Positions 1-40,430 of a stretch of 40,430 bases of DNA are shown piece by piece. Within the stretch, counting starts at the first letter, position 1. Each line of letters begins with the position of its first letter. The notes beneath the pieces are model-generated. The model saw only the letters and a list, made by a program, of their open reading frames with translations, was not told the DNA's origin and searched no databases. Source of the stretch: Escherichia phage MirsaeidiM_Esher7. Location of the stretch: the sequence record PQ593108.1, one strand, 5' to 3'. The position numbers and the translations under genes were made by a program.

Positions 1-55
1 GGTCTTCAATGGGCGTATTCCCACTCCGTCTTATAGTCCTCTTCAGAGAACGAAC
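1..55. repeat. terminal direct repeat copy, identical to 40376-40430
   Basis: First 55 bp are identical to the last 55 bp of the window; T7-family genomes have direct terminal repeats. The true repeat may be longer than what is represented here. Confidence 0.8.
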
Positions 56-109
56 CGTAAGACTCTTCGTCCATACTACCTCCTTTCGTTGATTGTTACC
101 ATTACGGCG

Positions 110-268
110 TTAATGACACTCAGACACCAGAGAACATATGAGAGTCTCGACCCACCCGACCCACTGACTTCCAGCAGTAACGCCAGCAGCAAGTAGAACA
201 GCAGCAAGAAACCTGTATGTAGCTCGATTGGTCGCCAGAGCTTTAAGTACAGCTTTGGTCTTTGCCAT
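110..268 (-). CDS. gene 19.5-like small protein (52 aa)
   Basis: ATG at 268 preceded by GGAGG; product MAKTKAVLKALATNRATYRFLAAVLLAAG... resembles my recollection of T7 gp19.5 (TYRFL motif, hydrophobic); sits downstream of the phiOR-like promoter as in T7. Confidence 0.5.
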   Translation of the reverse strand: MAKTKAVLKALATNRATYRFLAAVLLAAGVTAGSQWVGWVETLICSLVSECH

Positions 269-416
269 ATGCTACATACCTCCTGTATCTATGGTCTGTG
301 ACTATCTGTATTGGAGGTGATAATAATCATAATCACTCCTGACTATATGGAGACCTAGAGTCCTTACCTATATGCTAACTTTTAGTCGGCATACTATAAG
401 GTCCCCCTAGGTCCCC

Positions 417-439
417 CATCCCTATAGTGATAGTTAAGT
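417..439 (-). promoter_or_regulatory. phage RNAP promoter (phiOR-like, right-end promoter)
   Basis: Plus-strand motif ccctatagtgatagttaagtt, one of 11 copies of the conserved 23-bp promoter; position after the terminase/HNH genes matches T7 phiOR. Confidence 0.7.
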
Positions 440-452
440 TAACCTATTGAAT

Positions 453-995
453 TTACTTGTGGTTTCTATGAGACCTATCTCGCTTAGGGGACCGTAGGTT
501 TACTGCGTACTTCTTGTGCTTCTCTGTTCGTAAGGCGTCCAGCCAAGCCTCTAGTTCCTCTATGGAGTCCGAGGTCTTCGTGAAGCATTTACCTTTAACC
601 CGGAGCTGAGCACGATACTTGCCCGTTGGCTTGAAGAAGCTGATTCCTTTGGGCAGACCGTTAGTCTCCCCGCCTTCTGAGTTCCAGCGGTTCTCCAGCT
701 CAGTCACAAGCCTATAGTTCTCAGGCCTATCGTCAAGTCTATCACCATTAATATGGTCTACCAACATTCCATTAGGTATTCGACCTACAGCTAGACTATA
801 TATGATTCTTGAGCGTCTATATCTGCTTCCCAGCACCTTCACTATAGCATACCCGGATGGATGCACAGAGAAGCCCATTGGTTCACCCGGAATCTTCTTC
901 GAGCTACCGAAAGGCTTCTTGCACACCAAGTTTCCGTCAACATATGCGTAGTGGTTAAAGAGGGCCACCCTGTCGATGGCCTTCTGTTTACTCAT
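453..995 (-). CDS. HNH endonuclease with C-terminal AP2-like DNA-binding domain (putative homing endonuclease)
   Basis: 180 aa; HNH motif region VDHINGDRLDDRPENYRLVT; C-terminal GISFFKPTGKYRAQLRVKGK...SIEELEAWLD resembles an AP2 domain; ATG with AGGAGGAG RBS; T7 has no such gene here. Confidence 0.8.
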   Translation of the reverse strand: MSKQKAIDRVALFNHYAYVDGNLVCKKPFGSSKKIPGEPMGFSVHPSGYAIVKVLGSRYRRSRIIYSLAVGRIPNGMLVDHINGDRLDDRPENYRLVTELENRWNSEGGETNGLPKGISFFKPTGKYRAQLRVKGKCFTKTSDSIEELEAWLDALRTEKHKKYAVNLRSPKRDRSHRNHK

Positions 996-1008
996 AGTTC
1001 TCCTCCTA

Positions 1009-2772
1009 TTAATGGAACGTAACGTATGACCCTAGCCCCAGCTCGTCGTCCGTATCGTGAGTCACCCGGACCCCATTGTCCCAGAACTCAGTGTGGATGG
1101 ACTCGAAGCCTTTCCGTGGGTTATCCATCTGTTCTTCCAGCCACTCCTCAGTGACTTCACGTTCGCCTTTGTTGGCATCCTTAGCCATAGACTCAACGAA
1201 GAACTGTACACCGATAGCCAGCGCATCAAGTCGGTCATCGTGTGCCAAGGCTCCACGTTCACGAGAGATACGTGTCATCTGGTAGAAGAGAGAGTAGATA
1301 GGGTTACGAACACCATCCTTATCAGAGGCCGACTGGTAATCTTGGACGATAGCAGCAGCGTTGACGATAAGTCGGTGAGACCCCATGATAGGCTCCAGAA
1401 CGTCACAGATGCGGAGTTCCTTCTGACCCTTACTCTTCACTTCAGTTACAGCAGCAGGATGAATACGGGCAGCTACAGGCTTGAATAGCTCAAGGTACAT
1501 ACCATCACCGAAGTTACCCTCAATGACGTATTCGTTGACCTTCCACTTACGACCAATCTTAGCCAGAGCTTCCAGAGTAGAGTCTTCATAACCACCACGC
1601 ATACCACCAACTTCCATAGCGAAGATGTAGCCGTTGAGCTGATACAGTACCGCATAGCCAGTTTCATCCTTACCACGACCACTAGGGTCAATGACCAGAA
1701 TCTTCTGGGTGTACGAACTGAAGGCAGAACCTACAGTCTGATACGTGTGGTATGAGTCACCCATGAGTCCAACGTTAGGAACGTCCTCACGCTTGTTCTG
1801 AGGGTTAGGAAGCCATTGGTAGACCATTGGGCTGGACGCTGGGTCCAAGTCGGCTACGATAAGGTCACGGAGCTTCAGAGGGTACTTCTCAGCATCACTC
1901 AGGTTAGGGTTAAGCATGAACTGTAGAGCGAAGCCAGCTTTACCATAGGATAGCTCACGTTCCTTCAGGTCCGTATCATCGAATCGTACCTCATCGGTCG
2001 GACGCCAGTAGAAGGACTCAGGGTCCTCTTCAAGCTCTGCCTGAAGCATAGGAGCCAGACGGTCACCGTAAGACTGCCAATCCTTCCTGTCGCGTGGATA
2101 ACGAGCAGGCCAGATAGTAGTGGTATATCCACGACCTTCAAGCTCACGATACAGGGTCATCTCGTTCTGAGGAGTGCCCAGATAGATGATTGTACCTCCC
2201 GGCTTCAGGATAGCGTCAAACTCTTTCACAAGCTCTGACAGACGGTCTCGTGCAGCCTGAGTCGCTGAGTTGTTCGGAACCTCCACGTCATCGGCAATCA
2301 GGATGTCAGCACGACTACCAGTCAACTGACCAGTGATACCAACGGACTTAACCGAAGGTGAGTGGTCTGGCTTGGCTGGCCCAACGTCGAAGCTGATAAC
2401 CGCATCTCGCTGACCCTGCTTAGGTTTGAGTTCCCGAAGCTGAGGCATGAGGTCGATGATTCGCTTGATGAAGATGGAGTTAGCATCGGCTCGTTCCTTT
2501 GAGGCCGACACAATCATGAACTTCAAGTCTGGGTTGTTCCATAGCTTCCAGACAACGAAGGCACACGTAATGAAGGACTTCCCGATACCACGGAACGCTT
2601 GTAGGATGAAGCGCCTGTTGTCCCCAGCCGATAGTTTCTTCGCCATGTCAATCTGACAGCGAGTCGGTACTGGTAGTGACAGAGCTTTCCACAGGACGAA
2701 CAGGAAGAACACGAAGTCTGCCTTCATACGGGCAGTCATGAGCGCCGGACGCGCCACTAAATCTTTACTCAA
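1009..2772 (-). CDS. terminase large subunit (T7 gp19-like)
   Basis: 587 aa, collinear with T7 gp19 ([14 protein letters not shown], Walker A-like [23 protein letters not shown]). The codon at the T7-homologous start is TTG (2772-2770), preceded by AAGGAGG and overlapping the Rz stop; first in-frame ATG is at codon 12. Confidence 0.93.
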
Positions 2773-3218
2773 TGCGTCACCTCCTTATCTTGCTGCAAGG
2801 CTCTCACAGTGTCCTGAAGGGCCTTAATCCACTTGTCCCCTTTCAGTCCGATGGCGATAAGACGTTTAGCATCTCGTTCGTCAAGTTCGGCGAAATCATC
2901 AATGACGCATCGACCGTCACTTTGCGTGGTTCCACTCGTTGGTTTGACTCGGATGCGCAACCGCTTATTGTCAGACTGAAGGTCAGCAATAATCCTATCA
3001 GTGCTGCCTTCCAGCGAGGACATTTCGTCCTGAAACCGTTTGGACACTTTGTTGACTTCAGCTTGGACAGCAAGCCTTGTATCTTCCGATGCCTTAAGAT
3101 TCGAGGTGTATTCTTCATTGACCTTAGCCTCCCACTTATTGTTAGCGGTGTGGTATCCACCAGCAAACATCACTGCTGCAAGTAACCACGGAGCCGCTCT
3201 CTTTAAAAATTCGAGCAT
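2769..3218 (-). CDS. Rz-like i-spanin (T7 gp18.5-like)
   Basis: 149 aa, N-terminal TM segment ([21 protein letters not shown]), close match to recalled T7 gp18.5; position after small terminase. Confidence 0.9.
2843..3118 (-). CDS. Rz1-like o-spanin lipoprotein embedded in Rz (+1 frame)
   Basis: ORF wholly inside Rz in another frame with lipobox LTISGC after a hydrophobic stretch ([12 protein letters not shown]). Start uncertain: the ORF extends to 3166; I chose the internal ATG at 3118. Confidence 0.55.
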   Translation of the reverse strand: MKNTPRILRHRKIQGLLSKLKSTKCPNGFRTKCPRWKAALIGLLLTFSLTISGCASESNQRVEPRKVTVDASLMISPNLTNEMLNVLSPSD

Positions 3219-3272
3219 AGTTGCCCTCCCGGTTTATCAGATTTCACGTAGAGTCTCCTCCACTAGTTAGTG

Positions 3273-37221: not shown

Positions 37222-37482
37222 TTACTTGCATATCAGTGGGTTAGCGTGAAGATGACTGAAGTCACCGTGAGTCGTGTGCTTGATGGTTGACCGTTGGTCT
37301 ATCGCCTTCCAGCCTGAGACTAAAAGTTTACCATCGTCAGTGCTCGGTCGTCCACCATACGCCAGACACATCAGTTCGGACTTATGGCCCTCAGCCTCCA
37401 TGCGGCGGTGTAAGAACACGTCACGCTGTATTTGCTCTACACTGCTACGGATAGATGGTCTGTTAATGTATACGGTTTTCAT
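37222..37482 (-). CDS. hypothetical early protein
   Basis: 86 aa; ATGA overlap with the upstream nuclease gene stop. Confidence 0.5.
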   Translation of the reverse strand: MKTVYINRPSIRSSVEQIQRDVFLHRRMEAEGHKSELMCLAYGGRPSTDDGKLLVSGWKAIDQRSTIKHTTHGDFSHLHANPLICK

Positions 37483-37931
37483 TGTTGGTGTTCCCTTAAG
37501 TATTTGATTGCGTTGGATAATACCGCCTGTGAATCGTTAAACTTACCGAGGGCAAGATTACACTCCGTGCAGAGTAGACCTCGTACCTTGCCTGTTACAT
37601 GGCAGTGGTCTACCGCAAGACGCCGCTGGAGTGCGTCAGGATTTCCACATATTGCGCACACTCCTCCTTGCTCCTGAAGCATTTCTGCGTACTGAGCGGA
37701 TGTGATGCCATACCGTTTTTTTAGAGTTGAGTTAAGACACGCGTCCTTGTACGCATCTGACTTACGGTAGCGGCTTCTTAGCTCTTGCGCCATTTTCCCA
37801 GATTTATATTGAGCGATTTTCTCGTTTCGACACTTCTTGCAGTGGCCTTGGTAGCCATCTTTGTTCTTGGAGTCCTTATAGAACTCGCTCTTGGGTTTTA
37901 ATTCTCCACACTTACTACAAGTCTTACACAT
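37479..37931 (-). CDS. endonuclease VII-family (HNH-type) nuclease with N-terminal zinc-ribbon
   Basis: 150 aa; motif GGVCAICGNPDA...LAVDHCHVTGKVRGLLCTECNLALG is the Endonuclease_7 signature; N-terminal CKTCSKCG...HCKKC zinc ribbon. Confidence 0.8.
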   Translation of the reverse strand: MCKTCSKCGELKPKSEFYKDSKNKDGYQGHCKKCRNEKIAQYKSGKMAQELRSRYRKSDAYKDACLNSTLKKRYGITSAQYAEMLQEQGGVCAICGNPDALQRRLAVDHCHVTGKVRGLLCTECNLALGKFNDSQAVLSNAIKYLREHQQ

Positions 37932-40375: not shown

Positions 40376-40430
40376 GGTCTTCAATGGGCGTATTCCCACT
40401 CCGTCTTATAGTCCTCTTCAGAGAACGAAC
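40376..40430. repeat. terminal direct repeat copy, identical to 1-55
   Basis: Exact 55-bp match to window start. Confidence 0.8.

Follow-up and report, generated by a model that had tools for sequence, protein, structure and literature searches.

A free-standing HNH endonuclease gene with a predicted AP2-like domain, carried in a promoter-bearing cassette beside the terminase gene of a K1F-like phage

The HNH-AP2 homing endonucleases are a recognised family (PMC10448857, citing Magnani et al. 2004) that takes in the 'IPA-HNH' genes of ICP1 and other phages. Its members pair an N-terminal HNH nuclease with a C-terminal AP2-type domain, are free-standing and sporadic, and lie beside essential genes, those for terminases included; in all these respects the gene described here resembles them. 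The 'IPA-HNH' proteins of ICP1 have diverged too far to be recognised by the Pfam HNH_3 model, whereas our protein matches HNH_3 strongly and misses the AP2 model. I-HmuI of Bacillus phage SPO1 (PDB 1U3E) is intron-encoded, in contrast to our free-standing gene. Only the first ~100 residues of the two proteins align, at an identity of ~20%, and the C-terminal DNA-binding part of I-HmuI is not AP2-like, while the C-terminal module of our protein is predicted to adopt an AP2/ERF fold. The HK97 gp74 type is likewise an HNH nuclease encoded beside terminase genes. Nucleases of this type are conserved in their phage groups, are encoded upstream of the small terminase gene near cos and have Terminase_1 partners (PMC10448857, PMC8861465); our gene, in contrast, is sporadic, lies downstream of a T7-type large terminase gene and encodes homing-type DNA-binding modules. 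Orthologues in PE3-1, JSS1, Ro45lw, phiYIO1-1 and CHRF_30001 are 86-99% identical, occupy the same position and are annotated as 'HNH endonuclease' or 'HNH homing endonuclease'. The Ro45lw paper lists the HNH gene without comment (PMC9866566), and neither that paper nor the one on Hafnia phage Ca (PMC8861465) describes the cassette structure, allele replacement and distribution reported below.

The window, by which we mean the whole stretch of 40,430 nucleotides analysed (Escherichia phage MirsaeidiM_Esher7, PQ593108.1), is collinear with Escherichia phage Pipis and with K1F at an identity of ~95%, and on this basis we assign it to Kayfunavirus as the complete genome of a K1F-like, T7-type podophage. 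Its first 55 bases (1..55) are identical to its last (40376..40430), an overlap attributable to circular assembly, and the contig is therefore taken as complete. Its ends were placed in the interval from gene 19.5 to the terminal repeat, and relative to the customary T7 map the sequence is reverse-complemented; every gene in the region considered here is on the minus strand. The upstream flank of the HNH gene is the large terminase subunit gene (gene 19; 1009..2772, minus strand; Pfam Terminase-T7_RNaseH-like at 6.9e-38, plus Terminase_6N), whose stop codon is read from the sequence at 1009..1011. The downstream flank is a 52-aa homologue of gene 19.5/19.4 (110..268, minus strand; PHROG_2193, 4e-24), named gp19.4 in the K1F annotation and 19.5 in that of CR44b. 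A T7-like phage promoter core is found 12 times in the window, where chance would give 0.08, and one of these copies (core 421..437) stands between the HNH gene and the gene 19.5 homologue. The HNH gene is thus located between the terminase gene and the right-end promoter, as an earlier, sequence-only reading of this DNA had placed it. That reading had also stated that T7 has only gene 19.5 here, which the T7 layout bears out: the gene 19 stop is followed by 99 bp of non-coding DNA, phiOR and then gene 19.5, with no HNH ORF.

The HNH ORF (453..995, minus strand; 180 aa, from the ORF list) runs from an ATG at 995..993 to a TAA at 455..453, starting 13 nt past the terminase stop and ending 13 nt before the -17 edge of the promoter. 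Its ribosome-binding site, AGGAGGAGA (999..1007, minus strand), was read directly from the sequence and fits between the two genes, 1 nt past the stop of the terminase and 3 nt short of the ATG. A promoter-core scan of the window found no phage promoter between 437 and 5912, and the ORF is therefore probably expressed late, by read-through of the gene 19 transcript. Scanning 1..1300 for sigma-70 promoters and intrinsic terminators gave nothing above shuffled sequences. The HNH gene has no detectable paralogue within the window, and the exact protein sequence is absent from a collection of 15 billion proteins.

The assignment of the product as an HNH nuclease, made earlier from the letters alone, was upheld by profile searches: Pfam HNH_3 matches residues 61-102 at E=1.4e-14 (53.9 bits against a cut-off of 24.8), and the PHROG_99 'HNH endonuclease' profile matches at 4e-39, while NCBIfam returned no family match for the protein. 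A word-indexed protein search recovered 4 proteins only, and an exhaustive HMMER search was needed to place the protein among its relatives. That search returned 26,419 representatives at E<=1e-3, 711 at E<=1e-10 and only 2 at E<=1e-30: the superfamily is huge, and the lineage of our protein narrow. A beta-rich N-terminal region (residues ~9-60; 816..971, minus strand) is the equivalent of the N-terminal DNA-binding sheet of I-HmuI, and is followed by the HNH (His-Me finger) catalytic core at residues 61-105 (681..815, minus strand), which includes D80, H81, N93, N102 and N105. These five residues align with D74, H75, N87, N96 and N99 of I-HmuI, the catalytic Asp-His pair and the Asn residues of the motif. 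In a family alignment of 57 relatives with the same architecture, H81, N93 and N105 show no variation, and D80 and N102 are at least 90% conserved. A family profile matches I-HmuI (1U3E) over the N-terminal and HNH parts at 5.4e-12, and the protein also shows fold similarity to a solved member of the HNH_3, I-HmuI-like class. Direct searches of solved structures with the single protein gave only matches to pneumolysin, which were spurious, and the family profile was needed.

The C-terminal part, described in the sequence-only reading as an AP2-like DNA-binding domain, presents a mixed picture, in which the fold and the family profile agree with that description and the Pfam AP2 model on its own does not. 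PF00847 finds no match in our protein even at E<=1. Among the 57 relatives, all of which match HNH_3, the AP2 model matches 17 at E<=0.01, and of eight relatives rescanned singly only P0123 (36.8 bits) exceeds the AP2 cut-off of 33.3 bits. The C-terminal 65 residues of our protein taken alone match the AP2-positive relatives P0123 (20.4 bits), P0149, P0093 and P0078, in a search whose E-values refer to a database of 56 sequences and are indicative only. Over its C-terminal part the family profile matches the AP2 domain of TEM1 at E=0.002, and homology to AP2 domains can be followed through such intermediate sequences. An AlphaFold model of the protein (pLDDT 90.3), the input alignment for which included AP2-positive relatives, folds residues 118-159 into three strands and a helix, the arrangement that defines the AP2/ERF fold (a three-stranded antiparallel sheet on one helix, ~60 residues). 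We therefore describe residues ~112-160 (516..662, minus strand) as an AP2/ERF-like, putative DNA-binding domain, which is followed by a basic and poorly ordered tail. Profile and model together support a protein in three parts: a DNA-binding sheet like that of I-HmuI, the HNH core, and an AP2-like domain that has diverged.

The nuclease gene could in principle have lost its activity since an earlier invasion and now be a passive passenger. Its activity is a predicted one, and where the family consensus after the HNH core is NLR our protein has NYR, as seen in the alignment of 57 relatives. Against this, the ORF is intact at 180 aa in all eight genomes compared (the window and seven others) and is under strong purifying selection, with a dN/dS of 0.04-0.14 over saturated synonymous divergence; preservation of this kind far exceeds what chance would give. 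Every catalytic position is kept, all 14 tblastn matches to the protein are full-length, and the structure model is a confident one (pLDDT 90). We consider it very unlikely that the gene is a relic.

Comparison with relatives that lack the gene, a check proposed in the sequence-only reading, defined the edges of the element, and these match in two backbones. Homology to Pipis and K1F by blastn-short stops at window position 318 and restarts at 1010-1013, delimiting a mobile cassette of 694 bp (319..1012, minus strand) that contains the HNH ORF, its own promoter and a leader of ~100 nt. The cassette replaces a conserved segment of ~250 bp, and the 21-bp promoter core is all that it has in common with the empty allele. 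The gene had been called inserted; it is indeed an extra gene at a fixed slot, but what distinguishes the two states is a replacement, in which promoter and leader come along with the nuclease gene. The empty allele is at least 95.7% conserved among seven gene-minus phages, and the intergenic region falls into two discrete sizes, ~296 bp when empty and ~731-741 bp when occupied. Because the cassette replaces ~250 bp and the sequence at 300-460 occurs only in HNH-bearing records, we regard the locus as having two discrete alleles. In the second backbone, Salmonella phage CHRF_30001 has 700 bp where Shigella phage SFPH2 has 258 bp, with the same edges: in K1F-like and SFPH2-like backbones alike, the right edge is the terminase stop codon and the left edge lies ~45-50 nt before gene 19.5.

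The left junction is different in pO91, whose intergenic region of 838 bp holds a hybrid allele (616..851 of the pO91 locus) composed of the cassette, a (CA)9 microsatellite and the distal 93 bp of the empty allele. A left junction that varies in this way is what one would expect of recombinational acquisition, and not of precise transposition. An apparent 21-bp 'inversion' at the left junction was set aside, as it is probably a short palindromic stem common to both alleles. We also considered the last terminase codon, CAT versus CAC, as a marker of the cassette; this was ruled out, as gene-minus K1F also has CAT. Candidate RNA hairpins, sought both at the junctions of the cassette and within the empty allele, had folding energies that could not be told from those of shuffled sequences (z ~-1). 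In the empty allele of Pipis, the ~95 bp from the terminase stop to the resident promoter (990..1084) contain a 10-bp inverted repeat, AACTATAGG...CCTATAGTT, similar to pieces of a promoter; set against shuffles, its folding energy does not reach significance (z=-1.1).

The cassette was found in 14 phage records and the empty allele in 184 (counted as records with at least 80% of the empty allele), so that ~7% of related phages are occupied and the gene is not universal at this position. Presence and absence are found even inside one species, Kayfunavirus SFPH2, of which CHRF_30001 has the cassette and SFPH2 does not. The history of the cassette also departs from that of its backbone. The terminase gene of the window is closest to that of gene-minus Pipis (98.0% identical, with zero differences over 2013-2612), whereas the HNH protein finds its closest counterparts, at 99% identity, in phiYIO1-1 and Midid, two phages with terminase genes only 94.5% and 93.7% identical to that of the window. 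Since the closest terminase and the closest HNH protein belong to different phages, the two histories are decoupled. For the same genome pairs, dS is 0.7-1.5 in the HNH gene versus 0.14-0.55 in the adjacent 900 nt of the terminase 3′ half. Positions in the terminase gene that would tell plus genomes from minus ones were sought as candidates for target-site immunity, and there are none. CHRF_30001 and Ro45lw share a divergent stretch over the last ~300 bp of the terminase gene, which was considered as a co-conversion tract; because the same haplotype is common in gene-minus phages (SFPH2, Enterobacter and Dev2 phages), we attribute it to backbone variation, and no cassette-linked co-conversion tract was found.

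The slot after the terminase gene is also occupied by a gene of a second nuclease lineage. In Citrobacter phage CR44b, '3.8B' (842..1258 of the CR44b locus) is a different HNH_3 gene of 138 aa, 28% identical to ours and, like ours, a small gene flanking a Kayfunavirus terminase gene in the same slot. Its start is 11 nt past the stop codon of the terminase gene (the window equivalent is 996..1008), but it differs from the window gene in being without the N-terminal ~35 residues and in having kept the resident promoter and leader. 3.8B is also present in the Salmonella phages KE05, KE14 and KE18. At least two independent colonisations of the slot have thus taken place.

Endonuclease genes of the Hafnia phage Ca/CR44b type differ from the window gene in lying on the other, upstream side of the terminase gene. 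In Hafnia phage Ca, the slot between the spanin and terminase genes has been described as a 397-bp presence/absence polymorphism (PMC8861465). phiYIO1-1 and Zappy have an extra HNH_3 ORF here, with the Rz-like spanin gene on one side and the terminase gene on the other, and pO91 has an ORF in this slot that is a further, putative HNH_3 gene. The ORFs of this slot run over 2875..3258 in locus L003, 3275..3712 in L007 and 3140..3526 in L008 (pO91); in the window the slot is empty, with the junction at 2769..2772. Over the first ~250 bp of the terminase gene, genomes with a spanin-side gene have 13-54 differences per 100 bp from the window. Elsewhere in the genus, Pipis carries two HNH genes where the window has clean gaps, of 433 bp and 403 bp, at ~11043/11049 and ~21476/21492; one lies between the genes for internal virion proteins C and D, and the other just upstream of the portal gene. 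They add to the presence/absence polymorphisms of nuclease genes known from Kayfunavirus. Conversely, a 150-aa ORF in the early region of the window (37479..37931, minus strand; Pfam Endonuclease_7, 2.1e-27) sits in a 445-bp segment missing from the otherwise collinear Pipis and is probably another free-standing mobile nuclease gene, of the endonuclease VII type. Nuclease genes have been reported to bracket essential phage genes and to cluster beside terminase genes (PMC10448857), and the terminase-flanking hotspot observed here matches that published picture.

These distributions bear directly on a second function raised in the sequence-only reading, which noted that HNH proteins beside terminase genes have been proposed to assist packaging in some phages. 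Here the HNH protein would be a terminase accessory that cuts or processes concatemers. Enzymes of the I-HmuI type are nickases, and the processing of T7-type concatemers is thought to involve nicking, which would suit such a role. The gene also lies directly beside the large terminase gene and near the right genome end, and some HNH proteins have been linked to terminase function, the proposal for the HK97 gp74 type being the model (PMC10448857, PMC8861465). However, the 184 records with the empty allele include K1F, Pipis, Vec13, LM33_P1 and SH3, with terminase genes that share 96-98% identity with that of the window; because relatives with so similar a terminase have the empty allele, packaging has no need for the HNH protein. 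T7 has nothing at the position of the HNH gene. The terminase is moreover of the T7 type (PF22530, Terminase_6N), and not the Terminase_1 of the HK97-like HNH helpers; HNH_3 with two DNA-binding modules is the typical domain set of a homing enzyme; and in CR44b a different HNH lineage is found in the same slot. On this distribution the packaging role is close to refuted, and we attach hardly any probability to it.

The promoter of the cassette is of the phiOR type (417..439, minus strand, covering -17 to +6 with +1 at 422) and is an exact match to the 12-copy core. It precedes the gene 19.5 homologue, which it drives, and is invariant in seven gene-bearing genomes. The leader of the gene 19.5 transcript (319..416, minus strand) is specific to the cassette, as a search of the phage collection found the sequence at 300-460 only in the 14 records with the HNH gene. 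In the seven gene-bearing genomes the ~55 nt that follow +1 hardly vary, although synonymous sites of the ORF are saturated. A tandem GGGGGACC-TA-GGGGGACC lies at 400..417 (+6 to +23 on the transcribed strand), overlapping the last initially transcribed base of the promoter; the GGGGGACC 8-mer has no other occurrence in the window.

T7-type phages need the phiOR region in cis for concatemer processing and packaging. One possible extension, which we regard as improbable, is that the unit of mobility is a nuclease-plus-promoter module directed at the resident phiOR region of rival phages. The grounds for considering it are the cassette-borne phiOR-type promoter, a leader more conserved than the synonymous sites of the ORF, and the tandem repeat. 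If it were true, homing would also swap or knock out the packaging and replication signal of a competitor, and a selfish nuclease would be tied to the packaging region in a manner unlike the HK97 model.

Our preferred reading, to which we assign a probability of roughly 0.78, is that this is a free-standing gene for a homing endonuclease, active now or until recently, that its cassette replaces the resident allele and that its target lies in the segment removed. By class, the best reading is an HNH_3 (I-HmuI-like) enzyme with an AP2-like domain, apparently travelling in the 694-bp cassette together with a replacement phiOR-type promoter and leader. We favour homing because of the domain architecture, the catalytic residues, purifying selection, sporadic distribution, shared boundaries, decoupled history and reuse of the slot. 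The suggestion in the sequence-only reading that the gene is of a typical homing-endonuclease type is likewise supported by its sporadic occurrence, decoupled history and combination of HNH_3 with an AP2-like domain, homing itself being what we infer from them.

In the mechanism that we envisage, late read-through out of the terminase gene would supply the HNH transcript, and the ribosome-binding site of the ORF would serve for its translation. In cells co-infected by a Kayfunavirus that has no cassette, the HNH site would be placed by the AP2-like domain, together with the N-terminal sheet, on sequence found only in the empty allele. The enzyme would then nick or cut that allele, and recombinational repair from the cassette-bearing genome would copy the cassette in. 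A cassette-bearing genome would itself be immune, its target segment having been deleted or replaced; such self-immunity is plausible because the whole ~250-bp segment differs between the alleles. If pO91 is self-immune as well, the 93 bp that it retains would be without the target, which would most likely lie in the remaining ~157 bp, from the terminase stop to ~38 nt downstream of the conserved core of the resident promoter, a zone corresponding to 928..1084 of the Pipis locus. The ~95-bp segment of Pipis described above, which is deleted in cassette-bearing genomes, is a candidate location.

That all copies are intact despite deep synonymous divergence is also what retention for a phage-beneficial function would be expected to produce. 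Such a nuclease might be kept for cutting the DNA of competitors (exclusion that involves no efficient self-copying), or for binding close to phiOR and thereby modulating expression or right-end processing. The very strong purifying selection, the absence of a degenerate ORF among the eight, the long persistence implied by the dS values, and the near invariance of promoter and early leader beside saturated synonymous sites would all be accommodated, and for lactococcal phages there is a report of marker exclusion by HNH proteins that resemble I-HmuI (PMC12724721). However, with only ~7% of related genomes carrying the gene, any benefit is not a general one, and nothing supports binding at phiOR. 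Exclusion and homing are moreover one mechanism, hard to separate by sequence data. We consider retention for phage benefit unlikely as the primary explanation, and prefer homing.

The HNH-plus-AP2 family and the annotated Kayfunavirus orthologues were already known, and in this sense the finding is real but ordinary and leaves current understanding unchanged. What is new is the anatomy of the cassette, the two-allele structure, its frequency and the sharing of the slot. In practical terms, the enzyme could supply a new site-specific nickase or cutter, and a pair made up of K1F and an HNH-plus phage offers an easy system in which to measure homing in a T7-type phage. For phage genomics and the curation of therapy phages, an HNH gene beside a T7-type terminase gene should be taken for a mobile element, not for a component of the packaging apparatus. 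The locus provides a clean natural example of selfish nuclease genes colonising the borders of an essential phage gene.
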